Under the pieces are notes generated by a model that made no database searches, was not told where the DNA came from, and worked only from the letters and a program-made list of their open reading frames with translations. DNA of 20,000 bases from an uncultured virus (IMG/VR IMGVR_UViG_3300024268_000045) (taxonomy: Duplodnaviria > Heunggongvirae > Uroviricota > Caudoviricetes). The position numbers and the translations under genes were made by a program. Shown here in pieces: positions 4,119 through 19,636 of this stretch (position 1 is the stretch's first letter; each line of letters opens with the position of its first letter). The stretch lies in IMG/VR virus record IMGVR_UViG_3300024268_000045, one strand, 5' to 3'.

Positions 4119-4123
4119 TCAAT

Positions 4124-4173: not shown

Positions 4174-4197
4174 GTTCATTTTAAATCAATTGTTTTA

Positions 4198-4671: not shown

Positions 4672-4699
4672 AATTTGCTCCTTTTACTGTTATTACAAT

Positions 4700-4731: not shown

Positions 4732-5312
4732 ATTATATAAAGATTTTGTGCAATTTGTTTGATATAGGAGTCAATTTCATTTACGACTTGGGAAAGGTGT
4801 TTTGTCAAGTGAATTTCTTGATTTTGCAAACCACCTGAAGCAGCGTGTTTTTCATCCCAAATGCCTTTTCCTTTTTCGCCTGTAAACTTGTAAATTGATA
4901 AGTTGTGTTTTGCAAGTCCTTCCCAACAACCCTGCCAATAAAATGATGGGTCATCAGAATAAAACTTTACATCACAACTGTGAATTGCTTTTTTAAGTGC
5001 CTGCTCAAGTTGTCCATAACCCATATTCTTTTCATCTTTAAGATATTGTCCAACTTTATAAAAGCGAAGACACAATGTGTATTGCTCGTTCTTTCCTTGA
5101 GGAAGATTTGTTGAGGCTATATACCCAGTTGCCCCGTAAGTTGAGTTGGCAAAAAATATCAACTCGAGAAAATCTTGTTTTCTGTAATAAGCAGCTTGGC
5201 CCAAATCAATGTTGAAATCATTTTGATAACGCAAATCAAGATGATGTTGTGTCAAGCCTGAAACTGAATTACCTGCTAATGAATCTATAGTTGCCTCAAG
5301 GAATAACTGCAT
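4728..5312 (-). CDS. Hypothetical phage protein (194 aa) downstream of portal; degenerate SWIM-finger-like pattern
   Basis: ATG lies 1 nt after the portal stop. DVKFYSDDPSFYWQG...LTKHL resembles the CxC-P-x-F...CKHL spacing with the cysteines lost. Confidence 0.7.
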   Translation of the reverse strand: MQLFLEATIDSLAGNSVSGLTQHHLDLRYQNDFNIDLGQAAYYRKQDFLELIFFANSTYGATGYIASTNLPQGKNEQYTLCLRFYKVGQYLKDEKNMGYGQLEQALKKAIHSCDVKFYSDDPSFYWQGCWEGLAKHNLSIYKFTGEKGKGIWDEKHAASGGLQNQEIHLTKHLSQVVNEIDSYIKQIAQNLYII

Positions 5313-5313
5313 T

Positions 5314-7506
5314 TTACTCTCCTACTCCACCTGTAAGAATATCTGACGCAATTTGTTCATCAATCTTTCTGCGTCTTTCTGCTTCATCTTCAGTTGTAAA
5401 TGAATCTTTAATCTCCTGCATCTTATCGCCTACACTCTGTTCAGAAAGACGACTGCTGCTTGCAGGTACGCCTGTTCTCAATTCATACAATACTTTTATA
5501 GTATCATTAAGAACATCGTTTTCTTGAATTTTTGGCATTACATATTTATGAGAAACTGTTCCGCCCTCACCGTTGTAATTTGGAATCCAATCGTTTCCTG
5601 CCCATTCAGTAAGGTGTTGACTTTCAACAAACTTTATAAACAAACCGTCTTTTGCTTCTTTGTATCTGTTTGATACTTCACGAAGTCGTTTCTGTTGCAA
5701 TTCTGTCATACGAGCTTTTCTTTCACGAAGAAGCTTCTTTGCTTTTGCTGCTTCAATTTTAGCGGATTCCATAACAGTATCATCTCCGCCACCCATATCG
5801 TCGCCACCAAAGTCGAAATCATCTCCGCCATCATCGCCACCGTCTTCATCATCTCCGCCACCTACAGGCTTTAAGAATGATGACAAACGCATCCACTTTT
5901 GAACGTCTGTTGGGTCAAGGAATGAATACTTTGAAAGAATATCGGTAACAACATCTTCAGGAAGAGGCTCTCCTTCTTCAAGTCCTAAAGCTGATGTAAT
6001 CAATTCCATAATGGTCTGAGTCATTTCAAGAGTTGCCATACGAGCTTCACGTTTTTCCTGTCCCATCTCTTCAGCAGGGAAACGCATTGAAAGAACGAAT
6101 GGAGTGTTATAATCAAACTCACCTGTGATTGCAAAATGCAATCTTATGAGTTCACCAATACCATCAAGACAGGCTGATTGAATTGTATAAACGTGGCGAG
6201 CAAACGGCTTGTACTGTTCTGTCAATGAAATGCCTGAGTTACCAAATCCGCCAAACTCTTGGTCAAGATATGCCTTAGGTACACCTGATGCACGAGCAAC
6301 ACGGTCTTGGTAAAGTTCAATATCGCCTACGAAGTCAATGTCACATTTTGACTCTTTTACTTCAACATCAATCAAATCCTTAGGTGCCCAAATTTTTGTA
6401 TTTACAGTGTAAACTTCATTACCCGCATTTGCAGGATTTACGCCGATATTATCATATTCCTCACGAACTTCATTTACGTGTTCGAAAGCAACATCAGGTC
6501 CCATACCTTCAGTTCCTTGTACACCATAAATTGTTACTGGGAATGACATTTGTCTTGCAAGGCCTTGCAACATAATTGCAGAGAAAGCCAACTTAAATGG
6601 TGAAATACAACCTAAAAGAGGCGGACGACCATAAGGATAGAATTCAGAGTTTTCTGCATTGTAACGGAAATGTGATACTTCCCAAGGTGGTAAAATATTT
6701 CCGTCATACAATTCATATCCCAAAAGTTTAGCATCATAAGAATCTGCAATGTTTTCATCAAGGTCCATTGTCTTCTTATCAATAATTATATCTACAAGCT
6801 TTTGTATTTTCTCGGCGCGGTTTTTATTTGCAGAAAGATAGCCATTTTTCTGTGAAAGATATTCTGCCATTCTGATTGGGTTAAACTCAAGTCTCTCCAT
6901 AACTGAATTGACTTTGATAGGCTTAATACCTTCAATACCATTAAGACCTACTTTGTGAAGCCAGAATGATTCACCATAAAGTTCAAGGTCGTGGCATACT
7001 TGCTGCAATCTTTGTTGATTGATACCCCATCTTGCAAACAATTCATAACACTTTGAAGAGAACGCTGCGTTAGGAGAGTCAACTGTCAAGATACGGTTTT
7101 GAACATCAAGCTGTGTTGCTTCTGCAGCACAAAGTTCAACTACACGATAACCGAAGTCGTCATTGTAATAAAAGAATGACAACTCATTAAGTCTTTGCTG
7201 TCTATCCTGAATGTCGTTATATGAAAGAGTTGTCTCCTGCATATAAGCATCAAAGTATTTTTCAACATTTTCTGTAAGATGTTCTGATTTGAATACTGAA
7301 CCAAGAGCGGCGTTCTTGAAGCGGTATGCATCGTTGTTCAAGTCAACACGAACAAACTCCATACCATATTTTTTAACTAAAGGGTCATCACTCTTTTCGT
7401 CTCTTTTTGCTCTAAAGCCAAATAATGATGAGAGGCGAGAAACATATGAACTTTTCAATATGCTTGATTTAGGAGCCTCTCCACTTCTATAAATATCATC
7501 TGCCAT
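5314..7506 (-). CDS. Portal protein, T4 gp20-like (730 aa) with acidic/Gly linker and C-terminal extension
   Basis: Motifs VVELCAAEATQLD, LYGESFW, PWEVSHFR...FYPYGRPPL, LARQMSFP and DIELYQDRVARASGVPKAYL fit gp20-type portals of large phages. SD GAGG upstream. Confidence 0.85.
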   Translation of the reverse strand: MADDIYRSGEAPKSSILKSSYVSRLSSLFGFRAKRDEKSDDPLVKKYGMEFVRVDLNNDAYRFKNAALGSVFKSEHLTENVEKYFDAYMQETTLSYNDIQDRQQRLNELSFFYYNDDFGYRVVELCAAEATQLDVQNRILTVDSPNAAFSSKCYELFARWGINQQRLQQVCHDLELYGESFWLHKVGLNGIEGIKPIKVNSVMERLEFNPIRMAEYLSQKNGYLSANKNRAEKIQKLVDIIIDKKTMDLDENIADSYDAKLLGYELYDGNILPPWEVSHFRYNAENSEFYPYGRPPLLGCISPFKLAFSAIMLQGLARQMSFPVTIYGVQGTEGMGPDVAFEHVNEVREEYDNIGVNPANAGNEVYTVNTKIWAPKDLIDVEVKESKCDIDFVGDIELYQDRVARASGVPKAYLDQEFGGFGNSGISLTEQYKPFARHVYTIQSACLDGIGELIRLHFAITGEFDYNTPFVLSMRFPAEEMGQEKREARMATLEMTQTIMELITSALGLEEGEPLPEDVVTDILSKYSFLDPTDVQKWMRLSSFLKPVGGGDDEDGGDDGGDDFDFGGDDMGGGDDTVMESAKIEAAKAKKLLRERKARMTELQQKRLREVSNRYKEAKDGLFIKFVESQHLTEWAGNDWIPNYNGEGGTVSHKYVMPKIQENDVLNDTIKVLYELRTGVPASSSRLSEQSVGDKMQEIKDSFTTEDEAERRRKIDEQIASDILTGGVGE

Positions 7507-7525
7507 CTAAAAGATACCTCTTATA

Positions 7526-7534
7526 TATTTAGTT
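7526..7534 (-). promoter_or_regulatory. Putative late promoter AACTAAATA (portal)
   Basis: Exact 9-mer also at 8446-8454; both lie about 20 nt upstream of a start codon. Confidence 0.6.
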
Positions 7535-7542
7535 TTAAAAAG

Positions 7543-7576
7543 AAAAAAGCGTTCATATTTATGGTATATGAACGCT
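7543..7576 (-). terminator. Intrinsic terminator
   Basis: AGCGTTCATA...TATGAACGCT inverted repeat followed by a T-tract on the minus strand, downstream of the 7603-8427 gene. Confidence 0.7.
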
Positions 7577-7602
7577 CAACTATTATATATTAACAGTCGA
7601 CT

Positions 7603-8427
7603 TTATTCATTAAGAAGTTTATCGAAAAGCTGTTTCTTTGACTCTTCAAGAGGGTCGTAGTCAACTGTTTCAGGACTTACATCAGCTGCAACAAAGGTAT
7701 TGTGATTTTTATCAGTGAGATCATCATTGTCACTTGCAATCATATCCAAGTACTCGTCAGAAAGTTTGTCAGAGTCTTTTCCAAAACCTTTCTTATATAC
7801 AGGAATGCCTGTGTCAGCTATGTCATTTTCTTCTTCATCCATCCACATAGCTTCCTGTGCGTTCTCGATGCCATTTACATTAGAATTGAAACCGTCTTCC
7901 ATTTCGCCGTCATAAACGAAGTCATCATAACCTTCAGCATCAAAATCTTCAACTCCGCCGTCATAAACAGGAAGACCGTCTTCATCATCGTAAAGGTAGT
8001 CACCTACAGCTTCACGAATTCTTGTTTTCTCATCAGTATTCATTTTTGCCTCGAATAAGCCAAAGCAGTCTGCTCTGGAAAGAGCCGAATCCAAAGTTGG
8101 GAATGGGCCCATTTTATTATAAAGTCCATTTGCTAAAGAGAACAAATAAACCTCAAATCCACCTCCCTTTTCTTCTGTTTTTGTTGTCTTAATAACAACC
8201 AAATACTTTTTGTTTCCTGCAAGTGTTGCTCTAACTTCAGCACAAGCAGCAACAGAACCTTTTCCCTTTACAGCGTCTTTAAGTGCAGCGTGTTCTGGGC
8301 GTTCAGATGGAATAACATTATCAATGCAGCCTGAGCCTTTTTCAAGACCTCTGCAATAATCGCCTTCAGTATTTGCAGTTTTACGACATTCAATACCGAG
8401 ACAGTAAACATTATCAAAATTGTTCAT
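7603..8427 (-). CDS. Hypothetical acidic protein (274 aa), possible internal head protein
   Basis: SD GGAG, late-type motif upstream, very D/E-rich C-half, candidate protease sites LFEA, IREA, LEES. Confidence 0.7.
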   Translation of the reverse strand: MNNFDNVYCLGIECRKTANTEGDYCRGLEKGSGCIDNVIPSERPEHAALKDAVKGKGSVAACAEVRATLAGNKKYLVVIKTTKTEEKGGGFEVYLFSLANGLYNKMGPFPTLDSALSRADCFGLFEAKMNTDEKTRIREAVGDYLYDDEDGLPVYDGGVEDFDAEGYDDFVYDGEMEDGFNSNVNGIENAQEAMWMDEEENDIADTGIPVYKKGFGKDSDKLSDEYLDMIASDNDDLTDKNHNTFVAADVSPETVDYDPLEESKKQLFDKLLNE

Positions 8428-8445
8428 TATTTATCTCCACTTTAT

Positions 8446-8469
8446 TATTTAGTTGCAATAAACTAATTT
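8446..8469. promoter_or_regulatory. Divergent pair of late-promoter-like motifs
   Basis: AACTAAATA on minus (8446-8454) and AACTAATTT on plus (8461-8469) in the 45-nt gap between divergent genes. Confidence 0.55.
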
Positions 8470-8472
8470 ATT

Positions 8473-10095
8473 ATGACTGGTATATGTTATTTTGCAAACG
8501 ATGAGGTTGAATACTTTGCAGAACAGCAAGTTAATTCAATCGTAAATGATATTGATGACGGCGCAACACTTATAAGAGAAAATGAAGCTTTCTCTCCTGA
8601 GCTTGTTGATAATTTAATTGAAGAAGCTGCAAGTAAGAAATGTAATAAATTGGTTTTGATGGTTGAAGGTAAAAAGTATCATCAATACTCAAAAGTAATT
8701 CCTGAAGTTTACGGCGATATGTTTGAGTCAATCGAAGTTGTACCTGAAAACTTTGTAAGAGTTAGAGAAAGTAACAACTATGACTACTATGACGGAATGG
8801 AAGCAGATGCTGTGTTCTGGGCAGATAAGTATGACGAATATGTTGACGCAGGAATGACTGACCCTGATGATGGCATTGTCGGATTTGTTGCAGGAAAGAT
8901 TGATGAAGACCATCCTTCTGACAGCCCAGAGCAATATGCTTCATTGGAAAGATGGGTTATGAGCATCCTTAAAGAAAAAGGATACTTTAAGATGCCGTGG
9001 ATGACAGAAGCTCTTTTGAGAGAAAATGATACAGCTGCAAGAGGCGCTCAAGCTTTGCCTCAAAATGAACAAACACAGCAGGCAAAACCTGTTCAGCAAA
9101 ATAATCAACAACCATTCAACGATGCAGGTTCTGTTACATATATTCTTTGTGATGCTGCCCATATCAACCTTGCTAACATTAAAGCTTTTGATAATGATAC
9201 AAAACCTCTTATAGGAAAGTTTAAATTACAAAATGTAAGAAGATCATTTACAACTGTTGATAGTGCAAGACTTGAAGGCGCGGCACTTAAAAGCCTGTTG
9301 GTTGAATACCCAAAGAAAGTTGCAAACCTTGAAACTGTTGCACAGCAAATGTCACCTGATGCTCCAGACTTTTCACTTGAAGCAGATGGACAAATGACAT
9401 TACAAGCATTCTTACAAAAAGCAGGAACTGTAACACAAAAAGTAAAAGATGCTCAAGGTAATGAAGTTGAACAGCAAGTAAATACAGGCACAGGCGCAAA
9501 TATAAACATTTTTGCTCCTACAAAGCAGTATCAGTATTTAATGAAATTTGCAGGTGCTTACCAAAACATCCGTGTATTCAATCTTGGTAAGTCTTATGAA
9601 AATCAAAATAACCAAAAGATTAACCAACTTATGGAAATTCTTTTGAACACAGATAAAGAACTTGAATACACAGGAAAAGAAGAAGATTGGGTTGCCGCTC
9701 AAAAAGAAGGTAAAAACAATCTTGATATGCAGTTTATCAATTATGTTCGTTCAATAATGAAATTTATGAACGAATACGCAAATTGTGATAGACGCAAGCC
9801 ACACGATAAAGCAAAGCGCGAAAGTGAATTGATGAAAGCATTGAAAGATCAGCTTATGAAGTGGTCAGGCATTGGTAATGCAAAGAAAGAATTGAGTGAC
9901 AACTCTGCAATTGCAAAGTTTGCTATTGAGACTTTTGATAAAGTTAAAGATGCTGCAAAGAAAGATTTACAGGGTAATGAAAAAGATAAGAATAAAGGTA
10001 TGTTTGATGAAAAACAAGCAAAAGACCGCAACCCTAAAAATATCTTTATGTGGAAACATTACGCTGAATTAAGAAAACTTCTTATTGATAGATAA
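8473..10095 (+). CDS. Hypothetical protein (540 aa), possible processed head protein
   Basis: Long ORF, no clear SD (possibly leaderless after AACTAATTT); motifs IRENE, VRESN, LREND; Q/N-rich linker. Confidence 0.75.
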   Translation: MTGICYFANDEVEYFAEQQVNSIVNDIDDGATLIRENEAFSPELVDNLIEEAASKKCNKLVLMVEGKKYHQYSKVIPEVYGDMFESIEVVPENFVRVRESNNYDYYDGMEADAVFWADKYDEYVDAGMTDPDDGIVGFVAGKIDEDHPSDSPEQYASLERWVMSILKEKGYFKMPWMTEALLRENDTAARGAQALPQNEQTQQAKPVQQNNQQPFNDAGSVTYILCDAAHINLANIKAFDNDTKPLIGKFKLQNVRRSFTTVDSARLEGAALKSLLVEYPKKVANLETVAQQMSPDAPDFSLEADGQMTLQAFLQKAGTVTQKVKDAQGNEVEQQVNTGTGANINIFAPTKQYQYLMKFAGAYQNIRVFNLGKSYENQNNQKINQLMEILLNTDKELEYTGKEEDWVAAQKEGKNNLDMQFINYVRSIMKFMNEYANCDRRKPHDKAKRESELMKALKDQLMKWSGIGNAKKELSDNSAIAKFAIETFDKVKDAAKKDLQGNEKDKNKGMFDEKQAKDRNPKNIFMWKHYAELRKLLIDR

Positions 10096-10320
10096 TTATT
10101 TTTCTGCAAGATCTTTTGTGTAAGCGATTGTGAGTTGATTGTTTCTGACGAGTTTAAGCAACATTAAAGTTTTTGTTAATTCGTCAGTTATGATTAGTTC
10201 ATCAGTATTTGTTAAATGACACGGACATATTAAAGGGAAGCCTGCGTTTTTATATTTTTGATAAGCAAGAGTCGTTTCTGTACTTGTGCTAATCTTAAAA
10301 ACGTGGCTTCCCACTTTCAT
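10096..10320 (-). CDS. Hypothetical protein (74 aa)
   Basis: TAATG stop/start overlap with the upstream gene at 10318-10322. Confidence 0.65.
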   Translation of the reverse strand: MKVGSHVFKISTSTETTLAYQKYKNAGFPLICPCHLTNTDELIITDELTKTLMLLKLVRNNQLTIAYTKDLAEK

Positions 10321-11051
10321 TAGAATCTTCCTACTTCAGACCCAACTGCTTTATGAGAAATCTGACAACGAATCTGAAGTTCAGCTGCCTTTGCGATAAT
10401 CTCTTTTGCATTTGTCAAGTCTTCAATGATTACCGATATACGGTTCTTATCACATTGAGCAGTCTGTGACTCAACATAATTTTTGTAAAAATTTTCAACA
10501 TCATCAGCGTTCTTACAAACACACTGACAGTTTGAGAAAATATTTTTTGACATATCAAGGAATGCAAACATATTCTTTGGTGCTTCAGTATCACAATCAA
10601 TTAACACAACGTTGAAGTTTTCGTAAAACTGTTTTACACCTGAATAATTTATAGGCTTTCCTTTGAAAGCAAACTTTGGAGGCTGCTTACGGAATTCAAC
10701 AGTCTCCTCATTCTGTAAATCGTGGGAAATATGAGAAATCATTGCAAAGAGAATCATTGACTCGTCAATACAATTTTTGTTTGCCATATCTTCACCGATG
10801 AAGAAACCATACTTTTTTGAAAGAAGGAAGTCAATCCAATCATCTTCAAGTCCCTTTTCTTCAAGCTTCTTTTTTACATCTTCAAGAACAGCCTCGCATT
10901 CTTTTGTAAGGTCTTCTCTTGCAGGTTCTTTCTGTCCTTCAGGAATTGTAAACTTTCTTCCGTCATCTGAAAATCTAAACACGAGACCGTTCAAACCTTG
11001 AACCTGTCCTTCTGGGAAGTACTCCCAATCTAAGCTGTCCAACTTAAGCAT
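10320..11051 (-). CDS. Hypothetical protein (about 243 aa)
   Basis: Best start is ATG 11051 (MLKLD) after SD GGAGGA, overlapping the end of the previous gene. Confidence 0.7.
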   Translation of the reverse strand: MLKLDSLDWEYFPEGQVQGLNGLVFRFSDDGRKFTIPEGQKEPAREDLTKECEAVLEDVKKKLEEKGLEDDWIDFLLSKKYGFFIGEDMANKNCIDESMILFAMISHISHDLQNEETVEFRKQPPKFAFKGKPINYSGVKQFYENFNVVLIDCDTEAPKNMFAFLDMSKNIFSNCQCVCKNADDVENFYKNYVESQTAQCDKNRISVIIEDLTNAKEIIAKAAELQIRCQISHKAVGSEVGRF

Positions 11052-11403
11052 TCTTTTTCCTCCAATCGTCAATCTCTTCTTTCATACCTTCAATTGCTGC
11101 TTGATATTCCATTGAACCACGGTCTCTTAAAGGGAACTTAAGTTCAAGAATAATTACATTCTTGTCGTCCTTTTTGTAAGCCAATGAAATCTGGTCTGTA
11201 TCGAAGCAACGGAATACATCGAGATTATATCTTTCCTTACAATATGCAGTAAGGTCTTCAAACACATTGTTCTCAATATCAACCAAGTTGTCGTGTTGTT
11301 TGAATAATGTGTTCTTCTTTTTCTTGTCCAAAACTTTTGATGTCACAATGAGATTTGCAAGTCCTATGACAATATTAAGAATAAGTAATACACTTATTAA
11401 CAT
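11044..11403 (-). CDS. Hypothetical protein with N-terminal membrane anchor (119 aa)
   Basis: SD GGAGG before ATG 11403; MLISVLLILNIVIGLANLIV followed by a KKKK cluster. Confidence 0.7.
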   Translation of the reverse strand: MLISVLLILNIVIGLANLIVTSKVLDKKKKNTLFKQHDNLVDIENNVFEDLTAYCKERYNLDVFRCFDTDQISLAYKKDDKNVIILELKFPLRDRGSMEYQAAIEGMKEEIDDWRKKNA

Positions 11404-11423
11404 CAAAACCTCCAATATAATAA

Positions 11424-13322
11424 TTAGATTGTTTGTCCTTTTTGCAAAGAAAACAATTTTTTCCAAATGCCTTCACTGATATATTTTTGATTGAACAAAG
11501 AGTTAAGTGTTTCGCCTTTTGTCTCCAAGTTCAATTCCTGCAAGTTGTCGATTGAATTATCATATCTTAAAGAATATGTTCTTGTGACTTCAGTCTGCCC
11601 TGGGCGGTATATACGGCCTCTTGACTGAGTGTACTCAACAAAGTTATATGTCTTTTCAACATATACTTCATATTTACATTCAACGCAAGTTACAGATGTG
11701 TTCATAACTTTAATAGAAGCAATCAAAAGCTTTTGCTTAGGGTCTTTCAAAAACTTCTTAACTAAAGGAATGCGGTCGTCCATCGGAACATCAGCTGAAA
11801 TAATGCAAGGATTATAATTTGCATATCTTTCACTCAAAGTAACCATTGTCTCTGGGTGGAAATACCAAATGATACCTTTTTGTCCATCAACATCAGTTCT
11901 TTCTTCAATGATTTCATCAACAAGTTTAATCTTATTATAGTCTTTATTGTAATCAAACTTTCTGATGTCTTCTTTTAGGTCCTCTGGGAAGTACTCAAAC
12001 TTTTTATTATTCAATAATGCAGTTGGGTTGTCAACACAAGTTTGAAAATACTGAAATAAGTTCTTCATTCTTTCAGAGAAGCTCTGACCACCTTCACTTG
12101 CAATGTTTGCCTGTTCAGCAGCAGTAAAATTGCTGAAGCGTTCATATATTCTTCGATGTAAAGGCGACATCTCCATAAACATTGTTGGGACTTCATAATT
12201 CAATGGCAAGTCAAGACAATCAATCATAAGACGCTTTGCACAATAATGCTTCAGCATCTTTTTATTGAATTCTTCAAGTAAGTCAAGTCTCCAACCATTA
12301 GGATTGATTGCATAAGGGCTGTAAGAGTTACCAATATCATTATACTTTGCACACCAAGTTTGATAGTCCATACCATCAACTAAAGCAGGGTCAAGTATCT
12401 TTGAAGGCTCATACAATTTTTCATATTTATCTGCAAGAGTTCCTGTAAACTCAAATCTCTGTTCAAAGAACGGAACAATAAAGTTCATAATCTTTGTTCG
12501 TCTTGAGGTAGGTGAACTTAAGTAATGATTCTCATCAAGAAACAAACCACCTGGGTGTCCGTCAAGCCATTCTTTGATAGGCATTGGATTTTTAGTATAA
12601 GCTGTGCCCGTAGAAGGATGCTTATTCTTTTTTGTTGCAAACTTAATATCATAATAATAATTACTTACAGACTTCAAGGCATCGTAAGAAAGAATGATAA
12701 TTGTTTGAGGATACTTTTCAGTATTGAAAATATCGCGGTCTTCAAACTTTACTTTTGCCATAGAAGTAATTGTAAGAATATCTTCATCTCTCATATTCTT
12801 ACCGTGTAGCAACAATTCACCTTTAACATTACGAGTACCGATTGATGAAGAAAATATCAAACATTTATTTATGTCACCGTAATATCTTTTATGTTCGATT
12901 AAACCTGCAAGAATCCAAGATTTACCTAAACCCATTTCGTGGTGATATAAAAATCTGTTCTGACAAAGTCCTCTTAATAAGTCCTGTATTTGATAACTTT
13001 CATAAGGATGTTTTCCAACAAGAGGCGGATTGTTCATCAATTCTTGTCGGTAAGTTCGACGATATATTTTAAGTTCTTTTAAGTTTTCGTGATAAAGTTT
13101 TATCTCTTCTTCAGTAAGTAAATCAACTTCAGGCTGCTCACCAAAGTCAACACAAGATTTATAAAAATCTTCATATCTTGTTACATTAAGAGTCCATCTT
13201 TTTAATGTGGCATTCCATCGACAACCTTCTTCTTTCAAAAAATCAACAAGGTCGCGGAAATTATCGCCACCAATCTTAATAAGAAGATTTTTATCAGATG
13301 AGTCATATTCTATAGCAACCAT
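11424..13322 (-). CDS. SNF2-family (SF2) helicase/ATPase (632 aa)
   Basis: Walker A HEMGLGKS, Walker B LDENH, motif III TGT, motif VI QSRGRIYRPGQ. Start moved to ATG 13322 because the track start 13367 would run through a terminator. Confidence 0.88.
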   Translation of the reverse strand: MVAIEYDSSDKNLLIKIGGDNFRDLVDFLKEEGCRWNATLKRWTLNVTRYEDFYKSCVDFGEQPEVDLLTEEEIKLYHENLKELKIYRRTYRQELMNNPPLVGKHPYESYQIQDLLRGLCQNRFLYHHEMGLGKSWILAGLIEHKRYYGDINKCLIFSSSIGTRNVKGELLLHGKNMRDEDILTITSMAKVKFEDRDIFNTEKYPQTIIILSYDALKSVSNYYYDIKFATKKNKHPSTGTAYTKNPMPIKEWLDGHPGGLFLDENHYLSSPTSRRTKIMNFIVPFFEQRFEFTGTLADKYEKLYEPSKILDPALVDGMDYQTWCAKYNDIGNSYSPYAINPNGWRLDLLEEFNKKMLKHYCAKRLMIDCLDLPLNYEVPTMFMEMSPLHRRIYERFSNFTAAEQANIASEGGQSFSERMKNLFQYFQTCVDNPTALLNNKKFEYFPEDLKEDIRKFDYNKDYNKIKLVDEIIEERTDVDGQKGIIWYFHPETMVTLSERYANYNPCIISADVPMDDRIPLVKKFLKDPKQKLLIASIKVMNTSVTCVECKYEVYVEKTYNFVEYTQSRGRIYRPGQTEVTRTYSLRYDNSIDNLQELNLETKGETLNSLFNQKYISEGIWKKLFSLQKGQTI

Positions 13323-13332
13323 AATATAGAAT

Positions 13333-13341
13333 ATATTAACA
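13333..13341 (-). promoter_or_regulatory. Extended -10-like motif TGTTAATAT
   Basis: Exact 9-mer on the minus strand in four intergenic regions (7587-7595, 13333-13341, 16516-16524, 19616-19624). Confidence 0.6.
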
Positions 13342-13365
13342 AAAAAGGGTACCATTGCGGTACCC
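13341..13365 (-). terminator. Intrinsic terminator
   Basis: GGGTACC-N5-GGTACCC followed by T6 on the minus strand. Confidence 0.8.
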
Positions 13366-13389
13366 ATATATTTTTAACTTTTTATTTTG

Positions 13390-13698
13390 TTATTCTTCGT
13401 AACCTTCTGGGATATAGCAGAACAAATCTTCTTCATCTTCCCAAGGCTCATCGCCTGAAACTTCATCCCCATCTTCGTTATAGAAAACAGTTGCCTGAAC
13501 TTTTCTTCCACCTTTAAGATTGTTAAAAGCTCTTTGTGCAGTTTCTAAATCACCTTCATTATCAAATGAATATGACTGTCCATCATCATTATTTATTGTA
13601 ATGTTATGATGGCCTGAAATATCACGGAGAATATCTTCAATTGAAATCTCAAAAAGATCTCCGCCTTCATAATCAGTTACTCTTACAACTTCGTTCAT
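13390..13698 (-). CDS. Hypothetical acidic protein (102 aa)
   Basis: ATG 1 nt after the previous TAA with SD GGAG; D/E-rich. Confidence 0.7.
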   Translation of the reverse strand: MNEVVRVTDYEGGDLFEISIEDILRDISGHHNITINNDDGQSYSFDNEGDLETAQRAFNNLKGGRKVQATVFYNEDGDEVSGDEPWEDEEDLFCYIPEGYEE

Positions 13699-13699
13699 T

Positions 13700-14377
13700 T
13701 TACTCTCCCATTACTTTTTCGTATTCGTCATAATCATCTGAATCCAACCAAGACTCAAATCCGTCATCAGGAGCTTTACCGTTTTCATCTCTCTGTTCGA
13801 TTTTGATAAAAGCACCGCCCATTCCGAGAGTTTGTTCAACAACTTCAAGTCCCATCCCTGGAGCTGCAGTATCAAGGAACTGCTGAAGCTTGTTTACGAA
13901 ATCAATAAAGTTTATTTGTGCGCTCTTGAACTTACCTTCTTTTAACAACTTTTTGCTTTCTGATATTCTTTCCATTGTTTTAAGATTTTCAAAAAGAAAG
14001 CCCTGTCCTGCAGAAAGGTCCTCAAGTTTTTTAAGTTCTGCATCGTCAATGTAAACTCTGTCTTCCATCTCAGATACATCTGAAGCCATTTCAAACAAAC
14101 CTTTGATAGCTTGTTTCAAATCACCGCCCATATTCATCTCACCAATCTCGTCTTCATATTGCTGAGAAACATAAAAGCAAACTTTACCAGCCGCGTCTGG
14201 GTCTTCATAGCCCGTTGCAGTAATGCCAACATTGAAGCCTGCACCACAATAAACAGTTATAGCAACTTCTTCGTGAACTGGGTCATCAGATGTTTTTGCT
14301 TTTGCTCTATATGCTGCTCTAAGAAGGTCAGCCACTTTTGAATATGGAAGACCCTCTTCATTTTCAGTCATTTTCAT
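13700..14377 (-). CDS. Hypothetical acidic protein (225 aa), possible head protein
   Basis: ATGA overlap with the ligase-fragment gene, SD AGGAG; motifs MTEN, LFEN, ISES, LKEG. Confidence 0.7.
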   Translation of the reverse strand: MKMTENEEGLPYSKVADLLRAAYRAKAKTSDDPVHEEVAITVYCGAGFNVGITATGYEDPDAAGKVCFYVSQQYEDEIGEMNMGGDLKQAIKGLFEMASDVSEMEDRVYIDDAELKKLEDLSAGQGFLFENLKTMERISESKKLLKEGKFKSAQINFIDFVNKLQQFLDTAAPGMGLEVVEQTLGMGGAFIKIEQRDENGKAPDDGFESWLDSDDYDEYEKVMGE

Positions 14378-15210
14378 AAATATCTCCTATTGATATTTAG
14401 TAACATTTCAAGGAATGCTTCAGGAGATATAATTGCTGTACCGAGTTTCTTTGCTTTTTCTGATTTTGCTGAGGTTGAGTCTGGGTCAGCCTGAACAAGA
14501 TATGTAAGTGTTTTATTTATTGAGGAAACAGTTCCGCCGTTATCAACAACCATTTTTTCAAGGTCAGCTCGTTTGTAAGCCATTGCGCCTGTGAAGCAGA
14601 AACTCATTCCTGCAAGAACGCCACCTGCAACCTTTTCTTCTTCACCGATATTGCAAAGTTTTGATACTTCAAGCAGATCTTTTTTGATTTCTGACAAAGC
14701 CTGCAAAACTTTAATGCCTGACTCCAAAGTCCAACCTTTGATATTTGATATGTCACGAGGATTTGCTTTTTCAAAGAAACTTTCGATTGTGTTGTAACCT
14801 GCGTCAACTAAAGACTGCAAACGCTTTTCGCCGAAGTCTTCAATATCGAAAGCAGAGATAAAGTTGGCAAGTGTTCTTTTCTTTGACATTGCTGCCTTAA
14901 GATTTTTACGGATTTTTTCGGCATTCTTGCCTGCGATTTTATCAAGAACTGGGCTGTCGATTTCACGAAGGAATTGTGCAAGGGATTTGATATTTGCTTC
15001 TTTTACAAAGTCTTCAACAACTCGTGGACCAATTTCAAGAACATTCCACTTATTTGACATCTTTATGATTGCGTGTTCAATCTTCTTTGCGCAGGAATCG
15101 TTTGGGCAAAAAACTTCTCCACTGTCATTGATTTCAAGTTCTGTGCCGCAGCAAGGGCAGACAGTAGGCATTCCCCAATTGTATTTTTTAGCAAGTTCTG
15201 ATGCTTTCAT
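14374..15210 (-). CDS. C-terminal half of NAD-dependent DNA ligase (Zn finger, HhH repeats, BRCT); no adenylation or OB domain
   Basis: PTVCPCCGT...VFCPNDSC zinc finger, IGPRVV / FGEKRL / IKGW HhH motifs, LAGMSFCFTG...GGTVSS...TYLV...KSEKAKKLGTAII BRCT. Has its own SD AAGGAG and promoter. Confidence 0.85.
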   Translation of the reverse strand: MKASELAKKYNWGMPTVCPCCGTELEINDSGEVFCPNDSCAKKIEHAIIKMSNKWNVLEIGPRVVEDFVKEANIKSLAQFLREIDSPVLDKIAGKNAEKIRKNLKAAMSKKRTLANFISAFDIEDFGEKRLQSLVDAGYNTIESFFEKANPRDISNIKGWTLESGIKVLQALSEIKKDLLEVSKLCNIGEEEKVAGGVLAGMSFCFTGAMAYKRADLEKMVVDNGGTVSSINKTLTYLVQADPDSTSAKSEKAKKLGTAIISPEAFLEMLLNINRRYL

Positions 15211-15226
15211 ATTAACTCCTTACAAA

Positions 15227-15258
15227 AATAATATAAAGAAGTTATTCAGGAAGTTTAA
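15227..15258 (-). promoter_or_regulatory. sigma70-like (early) promoter TTAAAC-N17-TATATT, copy 2
   Basis: Shares a 16-nt and an 8-nt exact block with 4700-4731 at identical spacing. Confidence 0.65.
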
Positions 15259-15661
15259 TTGAAGACCAATTTTCTAACAACTTTTTTGCTTCTTTTTTAG
15301 AGTATTTTGGCTTTATATAGACAATTGAGTCTTTTTGTGTTTCCATTGAAAATTCAGAAAATATGCGATTTCTTATAGGAACACCTGGGCCTTTTTGAAC
15401 ATTCTTTTCAGACTCTTCAACATCCTTTTTATCGAAAAATGTTGGAAAGCGGTCAATAATTGTTTCAATTGCTTCTTCAGTAAGTTCAGCTTTTTGAGTG
15501 CCGTCTTCTCCAAAAACATATTGTTTTATTACTTCTTCTGGGTCGTTTTTGAAATCAATACTGCCGCTGAAAGGCATTTGAAGACGAACGAGTCTTAACA
15601 TATTCTCAGGAGTAAACTAATTGAATGACGATGCCAATTCTTCTTCTGTTTTATTTTTCAA
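15242..15661 (-). CDS. Major-capsid-fragment paralog 1 (in-frame TAG at 15617-15619; intact 119-aa ORF from 15601)
   Basis: SD AGGGAGG + 8 nt + TTG at 15661 gives MKNKTEEELASSFN*FTPENMLRLVRLQMP, matching capsid MAKMTEAQLSTSFQGFTPENMLRLVRLAMP. Later RNRIFSEFSMETQKDSIVYIKPKYSK matches RNKVFTEFAMESAKDSIKYIKPVYSK. Confidence 0.8.
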
Positions 15662-15695
15662 AGCAGCTGCCTCCCTTTCAAATATAGACCGTGCG

Positions 15696-15860
15696 TCAAA
15701 TCTCCTCAACAACTTCGTACCAATCCTTTCTTTTTGAGGTTTCAGCGTCTTTGTCAAATCCTGTCAAAGCCAACATTTGTTTATGAGCTGAGTCTTCTGT
15801 TGGCCAAGATTCATAATAAGTTCTTTCACCTGATTTTGTTACGTGATAAATATTAAACAT
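15696..15860 (-). CDS. Small hypothetical protein (54 aa), absent from ORF track
   Basis: MFNIYHVTKSGERTYYESWPTEDSAHKQMLALTGFDKDAETSKRKDWYEVVEEI*; TAATG overlap with the upstream stop; fills the gap. Confidence 0.65.
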   Translation of the reverse strand: MFNIYHVTKSGERTYYESWPTEDSAHKQMLALTGFDKDAETSKRKDWYEVVEEI

Positions 15861-16509
15861 TACTTCTTACCTCTCTTCTTTGGTTTAGTAAATTGTATTT
15901 TTTGAAGGTACAACTGATCTGATGGCGGAGCCATAGGTTTTTCTTTGAACAATTTACTTACTCTTTTATCAGAGTCGTGGTCAGCAAGTTCCAAGTCCTG
16001 TTCATCAAAGAATGTTGGGTACTTATCCAAAATCTTTTCAATTGTTTCTTCAGTAAGCTCGGCTTTATTACCGTCTCCAAAAACGATTTCTCTCAACTCT
16101 TCATAAGTATAATCGTCAAGGTTGATATTTTCTAATGAACCACCTAATATCGCTGATGGGAATATTGGTCGAACCTGAAGCTGTGATATAGGGTCAGCTA
16201 AAGTAATAGCATTCCCGTTATTGCCAATAACGCCTGTTGTTACGACAGGAGCAAGTTTGCCATACACTACTTGCGGCGCATCATCATCTTTATTTTCATA
16301 AACAGTAAGCAAGGAGCCGTCAGGCATCTGAACTTTTTTCTCAAGTTTTTTGTTGCTTTTACAAGTTTATCTGCTTCTTTTTTAAGTCTCTTATTTTCTT
16401 TCTCTTGTTCTTTTGTAACGTCGCTGCACCAATTACTGAACATATTCCATATTGAATGAGCTTCATCATCTTTCATCTCTAAAGAGATACTACCTTTAGG
16501 TCCTAGCAT
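15860..16509 (-). CDS. Major-capsid-fragment paralog 2, split into two ORFs (16267-16509 and 15860-16327) joined by a -1 shift
   Basis: Shares VFG.G..KAELTEE.IE.I.D..PTFFD with paralog 1. SKLFKEKPMAPPSDQLYLQKIQFTK aligns ungapped to capsid NKVFTEFAMESAKDSIKYIKPVYSK. In-frame A_AAA_AAC and A_AAA_AAG lie at 16333-16351. Confidence 0.6.
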
Positions 16510-16523
16510 ATAATGATATTAAC

Positions 16524-16547
16524 AAAAAAGGCAGGCTTCGGCCTGCC
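16524..16547 (-). terminator. Intrinsic terminator after flaA
   Basis: GGCAGGC-N4-GCCTGCC hairpin followed by T6 on the minus strand. Confidence 0.8.
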
Positions 16548-16570
16548 AATAGAGTCCGAGACCCTAGATT

Positions 16571-17383
16571 TTATTTTGCATCTCCTGAAGAATCCATTTT
16601 TTCTTTTTCTCTTTCAATCAGTGCAGCTTTAAGTTTGATTGCTTCTTTTTCTCTTTCTTCAACCTTTGTCTTATCACCTGACTTCAAATTGAAAGTTTCA
16701 TCTGTTGACTTAATAATCTCAAGTTCCTGTTCAGTATAAGCAAGATCATAAATAACCTTTACATTACTTATGTAAACAACTGAAACATCATAACCTGTGA
16801 TAGGGATTGTTCTTATGCGAATTGCTCTAATATAAAGTTCATTTGTTGCCTTTCCACCATAAGCTGGGTAATTCAAAACATCTCTTTTATTAGGGTCATC
16901 AACATATTCAAGGTTATCCCATTCAAGAACAACTTCACCAATAGTCTGCAAGTCGCCTTTGAATTTATATTCTTTACCTACTGGGTCATTTGGGTCAGTT
17001 GCTAAAAATATTGATACTTCATCATTTCTGTTTATGCCATTAACTGTAATACCAAGTTTCTTTAATGTGCCAACATTTGTCAAGTAGCCAAACTCTTTAT
17101 CAGCTTCAGTTATAATAGGATTGTATGGCGGCACAATGTCATAATACACATAACGATTTTCAGGAATGTTCTGAACACAAACAGCAAGTTTGCCATCAAC
17201 AATCTTAATCTGATAAGGAACTCCCTTAAGAGATGACATTGGACGAACTTCCCAATTTTCATAGGAATAACCATCAACTGCGTTTTCGATAAAAGTACTT
17301 GCATTAAGGAAAGTCTTTTCCTCAGCAAATGTTGTAAAACAAATTGCGAATAGCATTGCAAATATCGCAAACAACTTCTTCAT
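16571..17383 (-). CDS. flaA: Spirochete flagellar filament sheath (outer layer) protein FlaA-like, with Sec signal peptide (270 aa)
   Basis: Signal peptide MKKLFAIFAMLFAICFTTFA. IVPPY, GYLTNVGTLKKLGITVNG, LEWDNLEYVDDPNKRD..YPAY and YISNVKVIYDLA correspond to conserved Treponema FlaA blocks (NVGTIK, W.NP.Y...R.R...YP.Y, YFKDVKIIYDKA). Directly downstream of flaB; SD GAGGAG. Confidence 0.8.
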   Translation of the reverse strand: MKKLFAIFAMLFAICFTTFAEEKTFLNASTFIENAVDGYSYENWEVRPMSSLKGVPYQIKIVDGKLAVCVQNIPENRYVYYDIVPPYNPIITEADKEFGYLTNVGTLKKLGITVNGINRNDEVSIFLATDPNDPVGKEYKFKGDLQTIGEVVLEWDNLEYVDDPNKRDVLNYPAYGGKATNELYIRAIRIRTIPITGYDVSVVYISNVKVIYDLAYTEQELEIIKSTDETFNLKSGDKTKVEEREKEAIKLKAALIEREKEKMDSSGDAK

Positions 17384-17407
17384 TTATAATCTCCTCAAAT
17401 TAAAGTA

Positions 17408-17485
17408 AGGGGAACCGAAGTTCCCCTAGTTAAGCTCTTTTTTAAATACTAGGCAACTACCCACCCAATTGAGCCTCAGTTGCCT
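17408..17485 (-). terminator. Structured flaB-flaA spacer: two hairpins (partial terminator or mRNA stabiliser)
   Basis: AGGCAACT...AGTTGCCT (17451-17485) right after the flaB stop, and AGGGGAAC-TTCG-GTTCCCCT (17408-17427) with only a weak U-tail. Confidence 0.6.
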
Positions 17486-18343
17486 TTACTGTAAAAGCTG
17501 CAATACATTCTGTGACTGACTGTTTGCTTGCGCAAGCATTGCTGTTGAAGCCTGCTGAAGAATTGAATTCTTTGTGTAATCAACCATTTCTTTTGCCATA
17601 TCAGCGTCGCGAATAATGCTTTCTGATGAAGTCATATTCTCTGCTGCAACGTTGATACCTTTTGCTGCCATCTCCATTCTGTTCTGAACAGCACCAAGGT
17701 CGGCTCTCTGTCTGTTTACATTCTTCAACGCTTCGTCGATTGTTGCAAGTGTACGGTTTGCTGTTTCAGTATCTGAAACTGATACAAGAGCTCCGTCTTC
17801 ACCATCCTGCCCTTTTCCGCGAAGTCCCAAAGATTCAGCAGTTGCAGATGCAATGTTAATCTTGATGTTCTGGTCAACATTTGCGCCAACTTGGAAAGTG
17901 ATTGAGTTGTCAGTTTCTTTTGCGAAACGACCTGTCAACATATTGTAGCCATTGAACTGAGCAGTAGATGCGATACGGTCAACTTCAGCAACAAGCTGTG
18001 AAACTTCTACCTGAATTTGCATTCTGTCTTCATCGCTGTAAACACCATTTGATGCCTGAACAGCAAGTTCACGGATACGCTGCAAGATGTCTGTTGTTTC
18101 CTGAAGATAGCCAGAAGTAACTTGTATGAAACTTATAGCATTTTCAGTATTTTTGCTTGCTTGATTAAGACCTCTGATTTGAGCTCTCAATTTTTCACTT
18201 ATTGCAAGACCAGCTGCATCGTCACTTGCTTTATTTATGCGTTGACCTGAAGATAATTTTTCAATAGAACTTTGAACTTCCTTTGCATTTATTCTCTCCA
18301 TACGAGAGGCGAACATTGAACTAAGATTGTGATTGATAACCAT
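17486..18343 (-). CDS. flaB: Flagellin, spirochete FlaB core type (285 aa)
   Basis: [103 protein letters not shown]. Short variable region typical of spirochete FlaB; SD AAGGAG. Confidence 0.97.
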
Positions 18344-18364
18344 TTTTCTTCTCCTTAAGAGTCA

Positions 18365-19225
18365 TCACTTCCGTGTTTTGTATGGCTTACAAAGTTTACC
18401 TGCAACAAAGCCAGATGGACATTCATAACAGAAAATGTTCTCTTTTCCATTATTGAACCAATGTTTTCCTTTTCCAAACTTTAAGCGAGCTTCATTTGCT
18501 TTCTTCTTAGTCTCTTCGTTGATAGGCTTTTGAAGTTTGCCTTTTTTGAAGCCTTCAGGACACTCAAAATCAAGAATATTTTCTTCACCATTATTGAACC
18601 AATGTTTTCCTCTATGAATATCTGCAAGCCTCTTAATTTGATTTTTGCATTTATCACTGTTCTTCATAGAAGTTTTTATATGCTCAATATGTTCGTCTGT
18701 TTTTTTATGTCCTTTCAAAGATTTAGAAATATTATCATTCCAAGATTCTGTTCTTTCCACTGAGCTTAATTTCTTTGACATATTTTCTTTATATTCTTTA
18801 AGTGTTTGTTCATCCATTTCTCGTATAGCAGAACGACCATACATAGGATTCCCAGAACCAGAATATATTTTTGAAAAATGTTTCTTAACCTCGTCTGAAC
18901 ATATATGACCTTTATTGAGTTCTGATGATGCTTGTCCTACCAAAACTCTCAATCGTTCATATTCCCTACTTGAAACTTTATGCTTACCTGAATGTGATAG
19001 CCTCCATAAAGCAAATATCATTCCTTTTGTAGGATAAATCTTTACCAAAAGCTGGTGGCAAAAATAATGTTCTCTTGCAGTTAAGAGCACTTGATTAGAA
19101 AGTCTATCTTTCCAAAGAGGGAATATTGACTTTGGAAGTATATGATGCTTCTCATAATAAGCACCATTCTTCTTTTCTCTTAATCCCAACTTTTGCTCAT
19201 TCAAAGCTTTTGTAATAATTATCAT
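18365..19225 (-). CDS. Free-standing HNH homing endonuclease with NUMOD3-type and repeated C-terminal DNA-binding modules
   Basis: YYEKHHILPKS...NQVLLTAREHYFCHQLL HNH core; KGHICSDEVKK, GSGNPMYG and KGHKKTDEH NUMOD3-like motifs; two GKHWFNNG..N....ECP.GF..GKL repeats. Confidence 0.9.
   Translation of the reverse strand: MIIITKALNEQKLGLREKKNGAYYEKHHILPKSIFPLWKDRLSNQVLLTAREHYFCHQLLVKIYPTKGMIFALWRLSHSGKHKVSSREYERLRVLVGQASSELNKGHICSDEVKKHFSKIYSGSGNPMYGRSAIREMDEQTLKEYKENMSKKLSSVERTESWNDNISKSLKGHKKTDEHIEHIKTSMKNSDKCKNQIKRLADIHRGKHWFNNGEENILDFECPEGFKKGKLQKPINEETKKKANEARLKFGKGKHWFNNGKENIFCYECPSGFVAGKLCKPYKTRK
18447..18611. repeat. 24-nt direct repeat inside the endonuclease gene (domain duplication)
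   Basis: CCATTATTGAACCAATGTTTTCCT at 18447-18470 and 18588-18611. Confidence 0.9.
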
Positions 19226-19527
19226 ATGAACGGATATTCGGCTAAAGACCGAATATCTTCCTAATCTTACGAGCCGAGTACTCGACTTGATGGATTAGAA
19301 ACTTCGTGCTTCACAGCACTGCTTGGTGCTCCACACGCATTTGTACTTTCGGCTCGTTCCCTGCCTACTATGTCAGAGTCAAATCTGACTTCATTTTATG
19401 ATTTGCACCAGATAATACTGATCCCTGTGACTAACGTGGATTTCAATCATTTCTAATATAGTTAGTTGATTTTGAGCCTATTCAAATGTTTGGCTAAAGA
19501 CCAAACATTTTTCTAGGCTCGATTTCT
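19226..19527 (-). mobile_element. Non-autonomous IS200/IS605-family element (302 bp) with omegaRNA-like right end
   Basis: Two subterminal hairpins share the loop CTAAAGA (19233-19257 and 19484-19510). The minus strand ends ...GTTCAT and is preceded by TTTAC. No target duplication. Removing it rejoins ...FIHIY to MIIITKAL in frame. The 3' part reads like a tnpB tail (NACG...VKHE). Confidence 0.75.
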
Positions 19528-19552
19528 GTAAATATGAATGAAACTGTAAGCA

Positions 19553-19590
19553 CCTCCTAAGGCAAAAAAAGGTAGCATCCTTGCTACCTT
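19553..19590 (-). promoter_or_regulatory. Flagellin-type leader: AGGA-loop hairpin (CsrA-site-like) plus AGGAGG
   Basis: AAGGTAGCA-AGGA-TGCTACCTT, then a T-tract, then TTAGGAGGT. Could also act as an intrinsic terminator. Confidence 0.55.
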
Positions 19591-19594
19591 ATTA

Positions 19595-19621
19595 TTATCG
19601 ACATTTCATATAAAAATATTA
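19595..19621 (-). promoter_or_regulatory. sigma28 (FliA)-like promoter
   Basis: TAAT-N15-GTCGATAA versus consensus TAAA-N15-GCCGATAA; points toward HNH-flaB-flaA. Confidence 0.6.
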
Positions 19622-19636
19622 ACAATTATTTTTAAT

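Follow-up and report, generated by a model that had tools for sequence, protein, structure and literature searches.

The DNA analysed here (the window) is a 20,000-nt stretch of an uncultured virus of the class Caudoviricetes, IMG/VR record IMGVR_UViG_3300024268_000045. Two flagellar genes lie in tandem on its minus strand: flaB (17486–18343), which encodes a spirochete-type core flagellin, and flaA (16571–17383), which encodes a short sheath-type flagellar protein with a signal peptide. Upstream of flaB are a homing-endonuclease-like gene (18365–19225), a miniature insertion sequence (IS; 19223–19532), and a flaB control region that has become detached from its gene (19550–19622). A first-pass annotation, made from the sequence alone, had proposed that the interval 16571..19621 gives a T4-like phage both layers of the spirochete periplasmic flagellum, the FlaB core and the FlaA sheath. 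Pfam matches, the predicted fold, related phage records, and a genome with a gp23-like capsid gene, UvsX, rIIA, a tail tube and a baseplate wedge bear this out, and the intact flaB and the flaA-like gene are both phage-borne and conserved. The same interval also contains the endonuclease gene with ∼400 nt of non-coding DNA above it, the miniature IS, the detached leader and a mosaic flaB 5′ end; the annotation had mentioned neither the genetic elements nor the mosaic.

A spirochete-type core flagellin

The flaB gene encodes a 285-aa flagellin that consists of domains D0–D1 only and matches Pfam Flagellin_N (E 1.7e-42, 145.3 bits against a cut-off of 26.6) and Flagellin_C (E 8.8e-26, 90.5 bits against a cut-off of 23). 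Its nearest solved relatives are the Treponema filament flagellins 9pil (E 2.4e-106) and 9pim (E 1.1e-102), and the four best PDB sequences are all Treponema-type filament flagellins of 284–286 aa (E 1e-102 to 2e-106). PDB entries 9pil, 9pim and 9pin were linked to the Treponema denticola filament by sequence match. According to PMC13439194, this periplasmic filament has a FlaB1/FlaB3 core and FlaA as its major sheath protein. The residue roles cited below come from the same paper and are numbered as in T. denticola FlaB1; we took chain 9pim_CJ to be FlaB1 because the published residue numbers land on the right residue types in it.

Phage FlaB resembles the T. denticola protein in length, D0–D1 architecture and polymerisation residues. 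Residues reported to make longitudinal contacts (Q88, R91, E92, D106 and E225) are kept, as is R223, a lateral contact. Three O-glycosylation sites (S115, S126 and T137) and the FlaA contact D162 are 100% conserved in the phage clade described below, and a fourth site, T171, is Ser in 83% of that clade. The four-residue loop that carries the O-glycosylation site S152 is absent, as it likewise is from the chain whose numbering fits FlaB3. Unlike its T. denticola counterparts, the protein is encoded by a lytic-type jumbo phage and forms a clade of its own.

The first-pass description of FlaB as close to host type agrees with searches of Treponemataceae genomes, which were made throughout on samples of 201–401 genomes. 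A flagellin match was present in 300 of 301 sampled genomes, at identities of at most 71%. Among INPHARED phages, flagellin matches occurred in 12 records, every one below 60% identity, and there was no FlaA match. Both flaB and flaA have strong ribosome-binding sites.

A short and diverged sheath protein

The flaA product is 270 aa long and matches the Pfam FlaA family (PF04620; E 3.4e-10, 40.4 bits against a cut-off of 25), with the match confined to residues 98–215. Read by eye, its N-terminus has the layout of a Sec signal peptide, in which a lysine pair and a hydrophobic core lead to an alanine that precedes two glutamates. This segment aligns with the signal peptide of a 349-aa FlaA chain, shares the A-to-EE cleavage context of T. 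denticola FlaA, and is kept in all seven phage-type sequences. A single-sequence search of 1.84 billion representatives returned 67 matches at E ≤ 1e-3. Proteins of ∼245–295 aa among them align over the full length, whereas canonical FlaAs of 340–440 aa align only with residues ∼95–230.

A profile of 27 FlaA matches (A2; 25 of them match Pfam FlaA, and some members are canonical-like) aligned end to end with the 349-aa ‘flagellar filament outer layer protein’ chain 9pim_BR (E 2.6e-54), so that homology to T. denticola FlaA extends over the whole length by profile. Against the 201–246-aa ‘FlaA, putative’ chains the profile reached only ∼1e-4 to 1e-3. Searched alone, the window protein matched 9pim_BR at only E 1.2e-5 and the 326-aa form 10pl_Ab at E 6.2e-6. 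Structure prediction with AlphaFold from A2 gave a confident model (pLDDT 86.1, pTM 0.84) that retrieved chains of the sheath protein FlaA1 (9cyn) at Foldseek PDB ranks 1–3, with E-values from 6.5e-9 to 2.1e-8 and TM-scores of 0.59–0.63 on the target; carbohydrate-binding jelly rolls came next. The predicted structure has the FlaA fold, a beta jelly roll with C-terminal helices, the absence of which would have told against the first-pass reading of 16571–17383.

That reading also held FlaA to be strongly diverged and shortened, and both descriptions are accurate. Ninety-one of 201 sampled Treponemataceae genomes matched phage FlaA at E ≤ 1e-8 (best E 2e-12). These matches are 26–36% identical, run from approximately residue 80 onward, and so cover only the C-terminal two thirds; they always fall in open frames of 323–412 aa. 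At ∼80 residues shorter than major FlaA (∼350 aa), the phage protein does not have the full architecture of the latter, and two segments in its N-terminal half are missing relative to 9pim_BR. By hand mapping, an invariant serine of phage FlaAs, S51, aligns with S86 of T. denticola FlaA. In PMC13439194, S86 contacts FlaB1 D162, and K317 also binds FlaB.

Two hairpins flank flaA on the minus strand. One, just after the gene (16530–16547), resembles an intrinsic terminator, with a 7-pair stem that includes six G-C pairs, followed by TTTTTT. The other lies between flaB and flaA (17408–17427), has a weak T-run, and is possibly an attenuator or RNA stabiliser; the intergenic sequence around it is conserved in three phage relatives (L008, L011 and L015).

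The genes belong to a T4-like jumbo phage

The window occupies bases 18792–38791 of a 53,426-bp contig, which matches the middle of an IMG/VR record of 188,745 bp (G001; CheckV completeness 65%) at 99.992% identity over 53,299 bp. The contig encodes a tail tube protein (phrog_45), rIIA, a split family-A polymerase (PolA), SbcC/SbcD, a methylase, TnpB and two homing endonucleases. The longer record adds a head maturation protease, a baseplate wedge protein, UvsX, DnaB/DnaC, thymidylate synthase, dCMP deaminase and an anaerobic ribonucleotide reductase (NrdD). Its matches to integration and excision functions are transposases only, with no integrase match.

The first-pass annotation had named capsid, portal and helicase genes as neighbours of the pair. 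The helicase is confirmed and is encoded, together with a DNA-ligase piece, within the window itself. For the capsid there is a lead: ORF 2367–4118 (583 aa) resembles gp23-type capsid clusters (Atlas score 0.97, 224 of 256 features, 23 of 30 hits), and PF07068 (Gp23) is the most frequent family among its best Atlas matches. An Atlas query with ORF 8473–10095 gave only sub-threshold matches (≤0.78). Neither a portal nor a terminase was identified. The gp23-type capsid lead, contractile-tail parts, UvsX and rIIA together place the genome among T4-like (gp23-capsid) myoviruses. The window is part of a ∼300-kb T4-like jumbo myovirus that is lytic-type in look.

Several independent sequences support the integrity of the locus. 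Two further viral records carry the same cassette. Contigs from a public sequencing run that had not been flagged as a possible source (X9) cover 30 of 30 bins of the window, with zero differences in the pieces listed, 15797–17754 (flaA into flaB) and 18348–19256 (endonuclease). A relative, L015 (G003:C130), is a 306,108-bp contig whose flagellin and FlaA are 87% and 94% identical to those of the window. Its first 141 bases recur exactly at its end, as expected of a circular assembly, which suggests that it is a complete relative of the phage. L015 was deposited in a ‘Candidatus Fimenecus’ metagenome-assembled genome (MAG). Because FlaA in that MAG occurs on the 306-kb contig only, with no FliS, FliW or CsrA anywhere in the MAG, the bin assignment is probably wrong and L015 a mis-binned phage. 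The first-pass annotation had asked whether the assembly is chimeric or the locus part of a host chromosome, and neither was found. A chimeric assembly was rejected since independent records, including the 188,745-bp record and run X9, match base for base, and a host-chromosome piece was rejected since the cassette lies inside viral records with phage genes.

Codon use in flaB and flaA falls within the phage's own range; the first-pass annotation had remarked that most of flaB shares the favoured codons of the capsid gene. It does not serve as a marker of phage against host, as Treponemataceae flaB genes score 0.60–0.77 on the phage reference and phage flaB scores 0.74.

A conserved two-gene module

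The pair recurs in related phage contigs, as the first-pass annotation suggested should be examined. Close copies of both proteins are encoded on contigs of 301,296, 303,745 and 306,535 bp, and the flagellin and FlaA clusters are both also found on contigs of 160,344, 119,407, 38,532 and 6,911 bp. A distant viral record of 259,307 bp (L123) encodes a 283-aa FlaB that is 72.6% identical to that of the window and, two small ORFs later, a 276-aa FlaA-like protein that is 28% identical. The L123 pair has the same flanks as in the window: a polymerase piece, SbcD and a 5′-3′ exonuclease on one side and the C-terminal piece of an NAD-ligase on the other. On a 10-kb contig (L013), which has no flagellin within its length, a FlaA-like gene (42–44% identical) is flanked by GroEL and by unknown ORFs; gp32, UvsX and methylase genes lie near. 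In a bovine-gut relative (run X14, a 7,124-nt contig), 873 other letters replace the 171-nt spacer between flaB and flaA (window 17395–17567), which suggests an extra gene at that point. No phage FlaB–FlaA pair has been reported in the literature that we searched.

Phylogenetic analysis separates both proteins from those of sampled bacteria. In a FlaB tree of 126 rows, the window protein falls in a phage-type clade of 48 rows (SH-aLRT 99), where it is joined by four known phage loci and 43 database proteins. The tree also includes 64 spirochete-type FlaB rows taken from contigs of bacterial genomes or MAGs, all of which lie outside this clade. Its sisters are the FlaBs of ten Treponemataceae genomes, and the clade is nested within Treponemataceae FlaB. 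Phage and bacterial FlaB rows are cleanly split at four positions only (window positions 16, 167, 238 and 266). In a quick IQ-TREE analysis of 70 FlaA rows, the window protein falls in a 26-row clade of short proteins (SH-aLRT 99), apart from the long Treponema FlaAs and from the 240–258-aa minor Treponema paralogues. NCBI gave no source for any of the ten representatives of the short clade that were looked up, and scans of viral contigs with two other short FlaAs (P0148 and P0141) gave no matches; 17 short FlaAs, once aligned, proved too diverse for scanning.

Both genes are under purifying selection, as judged from dN/dS among five phage alleles (10 pairs for each gene): 0.11–0.18 for flaB and 0.00–0.105 for flaA. 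The best explanation of the shared neighbourhoods, trees and substitution patterns is that flaB–flaA is an old, vertically inherited two-gene module among phage replication genes.

The flaB control region and its mobile insert

In the phage relatives, flaB is preceded by signals of flagellar type. The sequence TTAA, a spacer and TCGATAA lie before the flaB start codon in L008, L010 and L011. For comparison, PMC9481697 gives the −35 and −10 elements of the T. denticola flaB2 promoter as TTAA and CCGATAA. In these three relatives and in L123, two hairpins stand directly before the start codon; in the first three, the loop of hairpin 1 shows AAGGA, and hairpin 2 contains an AGGAGG ribosome-binding site. 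Leader folding z-scores are −2.9 for the L008/L010/L011 type and −4.1 for L123. The latter keeps both hairpins but not the TCGATAA box. Each of its hairpins has one base pair in which both partners differ, a covariation that is thin (five sequences, three of them nearly identical).

The window retains these signals at 19550–19622 on the minus strand, as an ancestral control region detached from flaB. Sigma-28-like promoter elements (TTAA at 19619–19622 and TCGATAA at 19595–19601) are followed by hairpin 1 with its GGA loop (19569–19590) and by hairpin 2 holding AGGAGG (19550–19563), each as before flaB in relatives. GGA in two hairpin loops, with the second hairpin over the ribosome-binding site, is a CsrA-type arrangement shared by L008, L010, L011, L123 and the detached copy (19550–19590). 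The CsrA motif and this layout characterise the leaders of CsrA-repressed flagellin mRNAs. Taken together, the elements suggest that flaB in the relatives is under a sigma-28-like promoter and a CsrA-type leader, with CsrA binding predicted. The leaders of Bacillus subtilis hag, Campylobacter jejuni flaA and Borrelia burgdorferi flaB, as cited in PMC9481697, share the pair of GGA-loop hairpins with a ribosome-binding site in the second. Unlike those CsrA–FliW leaders, the one described here belongs to a phage gene, is assigned to CsrA by prediction and, in the window, has a 1.2-kb mobile insert between it and flaB. The leader that flaB now has in the window lacks structure (z −0.31) but has GGA at −27 and in the ribosome-binding site. 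An Rfam search of the whole window gave 0 matches at E ≤ 0.1. Three phage records searched (L123's own record not among them) encode no FliS, FliW or CsrA, and the phage would therefore depend on those of its host.

Comparison with L008, L010 and L011 places the insert (∼18344–19549) exactly between leader and flaB. It consists of a free-standing homing-endonuclease-like gene and a miniature IS200/605 element. The endonuclease gene (18365–19225, minus strand) encodes 286 aa, matches phrog_655 (E 8.7e-35), contains a NUMOD3 motif, and ends 21 nt upstream of the flaB start codon. It is absent from this site in L008, L010 and L011, and L015 has a different insert of ∼0.9 kb there. The miniature element (19223–19532, minus strand) is a left end and a right end with no tnpA or tnpB: 19454–19532 corresponds at 85% identity to the left end, and 19223–19372 at 97% to the right end, of a complete TnpA/TnpB copy elsewhere in the phage (G001 ∼102200–104027). 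Because this 1.8-kb insertion of the 188-kb record is lacking in the window's contig, the IS is currently mobile in the phage population. The miniature element could also yield an orphan TnpB guide-RNA scaffold ending 1–2 nt before the endonuclease start codon.

The 5′ end of flaB beside the insert is mosaic. Codons 1–80 (18104–18343, minus strand) have been replaced from a divergent lineage. The first 240 nt are 64% identical to L008 (pS 0.75, pN 0.26), and the remaining 615 nt (codons 81–285) are 94% identical (pS 0.21, pN 0.013), with a sharp break at nucleotide 240. Against relatives without the insert, the first 80 codons are saturated at synonymous sites, and the 5′ end stands out from the remainder of the gene in the same way when L008 is compared with L015. 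We read this pattern as endonuclease-driven turnover with a co-converted flaB tract, where both the activity and the target of the endonuclease are predicted. Such turnover would make flaB a conserved landing site common to co-infecting relatives. Free-standing homing endonucleases of T4, Seg and Mob, present a similar picture: an endonuclease gene beside a conserved gene, adjoining a co-converted divergent tract.

Host and habitat

The host is most likely a Treponemataceae spirochete, an indirect assignment. The window's first 16,500 nt (1–16500) gave only short, imperfect, AT-rich matches, none of them spacer-like, in 107 of 401 sampled Treponemataceae genomes (best E 1.1e-5, 80% over 60 nt). 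The phage derives from samples of animal gut and faeces. The stretch is present in public runs that carry the label feces metagenome, and 12 of the 24 listed runs hold at least half of the sampled words. Sheep and bovine runs with small shares were left out of these habitat claims, except for X14 with its 7,124-nt relative contig.

Function of the phage flagellar pair

We propose, with a probability of about 0.5, that phage FlaB and FlaA maintain or remodel the periplasmic flagellum of the host. The host flagellar pathway and the periplasm are favoured over the virion because of the FlaA signal peptide, the placement of the pair among replication genes, the host-type control signals of the relatives and the conserved FlaB assembly residues. 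In most relatives, phage flagellin would be made under host-type late-flagellar control, through the sigma-28-like promoter and the CsrA/FliW-type two-hairpin leader; in this genome, the endonuclease and miniature-IS insert would stand between leader and gene. The flagellin would probably be exported through the type III apparatus of the host flagellum and co-polymerise into the filament core, and the short FlaA, exported by Sec, would coat that core. Over a long infection the flagellum could then be kept up or reshaped, which would affect how the cell moves or what shape it has. We infer the identity of the host, the expression of the pair in infected cells, its incorporation into the filament and its benefit to the phage.

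A more specific version of this proposal can be put forward only tentatively. A family of ∼260–306-kb T4-like phages of gut treponemes might have long held an endoflagellum kit, in which a host-compatible core flagellin is placed under the sigma-28 and CsrA/FliW checkpoint and combined with a minimal, fast-evolving sheath. The kit might re-engineer the stiffness or curvature of the filament and thereby swimming or shape, and the flagellin gene might be entrenched enough to have become a landing site for homing endonucleases.

Several observations weigh against maintenance or remodelling. Within FlaB, the lateral contact R244 is replaced by Ile in 62% of the phage clade, and the second FlaA contact, N147, is Asn in the window and in only 56% of the clade (both roles as given in PMC13439194). 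That the clade is phage-only is a supported guess, as 43 of its 48 rows are database proteins. Within FlaA, the equivalent of K317 is Ala, in a charged C-terminal helix where the alignment is weak, and D220, R292 and R306, residues of the T. denticola FlaA–FlaA lattice, are not conserved in a hand mapping on similarly weak alignment. The host-type leader stands 1.2 kb from flaB in this genome. As regards the host, a 1.9-kb TnpA/TnpB element of the phage has a match in 0 of 401 sampled Treponemataceae genomes, and window positions 1–16500 gave no spacer-like match in the same 401. Evidence from RNA libraries is limited to a single contig of 1,720 nt, 93% identical, that bridges the endonuclease and nucleotides 1–288 of flaB and for which DNA carry-over is possible; in the metatranscriptome concerned, most pieces over flaB are 85–90% alike and come from other flagellins, and metatranscriptome contigs cannot demonstrate a transcript. 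Finally, filaments are stable, and there is no evident reason why an infecting phage should have to resupply them.

The alternative that survives best, though we consider it unlikely, is that the pair acts as a regulatory decoy. Phage flagellin, the GGA-rich leader RNA, or both would titrate host FliW, FliS or CsrA and rewire the CsrA regulon or checkpoint, and no filament would be built. The relatives' canonical two-hairpin leader with GGA in its loops may keep this idea alive, as does the lack of FliW, CsrA and FliS in the phage records searched. Both csrA and fliW are present in T. denticola, and PMC9481697 reports that CsrA sites lie close to the ribosome-binding sites of its flaB1 and flaB2. 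However, titration leaves unexplained why a Sec-exported FlaA is co-conserved and why filament-contact and glycosylation residues are retained, since the C-terminal, chaperone-binding parts of a flagellin alone would suffice.

Less probable still is a flagellar swap for protection or exclusion, in which an altered core and sheath escape recognition by rival phages or host immunity. There is precedent in the prophage flagellins of Enterobacteriaceae that occur with TldR, which remodel flagella and raise host fitness (PMC13418256; 10.1101/2025.07.22.666180). In that system, the prophage is temperate and its flagellin gene adjoins a nuclease-dead TnpB-like repressor with a guide RNA. As in those prophages, a phage here brings a flagellin and has TnpB-family elements in its genome. 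FlaA is moreover only 28% identical between phage lineages yet constrained within them, as a swap might predict. Unlike the TldR prophages, this phage is T4-like and lytic-looking, has no integrase match in 188 kb, and accompanies the core gene with a sheath gene, and its target would be a periplasmic filament, which is poorly exposed. Nor is there a TnpB-derived, TldR-like repressor beside flaB: the adjacent element is a pair of IS ends without genes, the nearest TnpB in the 188-kb record lies ∼35 kb away, and two of the three TnpBs have a TnpA partner. Control appears to run through sigma-28 and CsrA and not through an RNA-guided repressor.

We give very little weight to a third possibility, also raised in the first-pass annotation, that the proteins have been repurposed for virions or other phage structures such as fibres. 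Flagellin-like PHROG families do exist (phrog_16088, function unknown). Yet a Sec signal peptide would take FlaA out of the cytoplasm, where virions assemble, the two genes lie outside the structural block, and flaB has flagellar-type control signals. Upkeep or remodelling is thus favoured, and a virion role opposed, by the signal peptide on FlaA, the assembly residues kept in FlaB, and the relatives' promoter and leader. That the pair is an artefact or host DNA, whether a chimera, a piece of bacterial chromosome or a recent non-functional passenger, is scarcely credible: the filing of one relative's contig in a bacterial MAG is accounted for by mis-binning, independent records are identical base for base, and a recent passenger is ruled out because of purifying selection and conserved gene order across distant lineages.

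The phage also encodes a multi-pass membrane GGDEF protein with an intact GGEEF motif (L096:4263–5267(−) in G001; E 6.7e-30). This cyclase could possibly be a second lever on host motility, via c-di-GMP.

Maintenance or remodelling of the host flagellum would add a motility organelle to the host machines that phage auxiliary genes are known to resupply, of which cyanophage psbA is an example. Like psbA, the genes here are host-derived structural genes under purifying selection in a lytic-type phage; unlike psbA, they do not serve a metabolic machine. Phage flagellins have so far been known from temperate enterobacterial phages with TldR, and here a large lytic-type family carries both filament layers. 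From the genus Treponema just one prophage has been characterised, according to the abstract of PMC11144348. The phage proteins provide a natural set of ‘minimal’ FlaA sheath variants, and of FlaB variants, for testing the rules of core–sheath coupling recently found by cryo-EM, and a handle on viral manipulation of motility and shape in bacteria whose flagella double as cytoskeleton. The combination of short-type FlaA and phage-type FlaB may also be used as a marker for spirochete jumbo phages in gut and rumen data.

Other genes of the phage

The family-A DNA polymerase of the phage is split and permuted (L002:6165–7217(+) and L002:8042–10102(+)): the C-terminal palm/fingers part is encoded ahead of the part that comprises the exonuclease and the N-terminus. 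L123, too, has a polymerase piece flanked by these neighbours. Within the window, 14374–15210 on the minus strand is a stand-alone 278-aa ORF that corresponds only to the C-terminal HhH-BRCT part of an NAD-dependent DNA ligase, and its position is conserved in L123. The 188 kb of G001 yielded no tRNA genes. That record does carry a tmRNA gene (ARAGORN; L097:13926–14306(−)) that adjoins a homing-endonuclease gene. It also encodes a full-length eukaryote-type topoisomerase IB with Topoisom_I_N, catalytic core and C-terminal domain (L102:1988–3682(−)), a BspA-type leucine-rich-repeat protein (L096:15092–15835(−)), a flotillin-like protein (L096:8667–9275(−)) and a microbial PARG (L102:18573–19406(−)). 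Giant ORFs of the phage, none assigned to a family, reach 3,911, 2,341, 1,968 and 1,618 aa.

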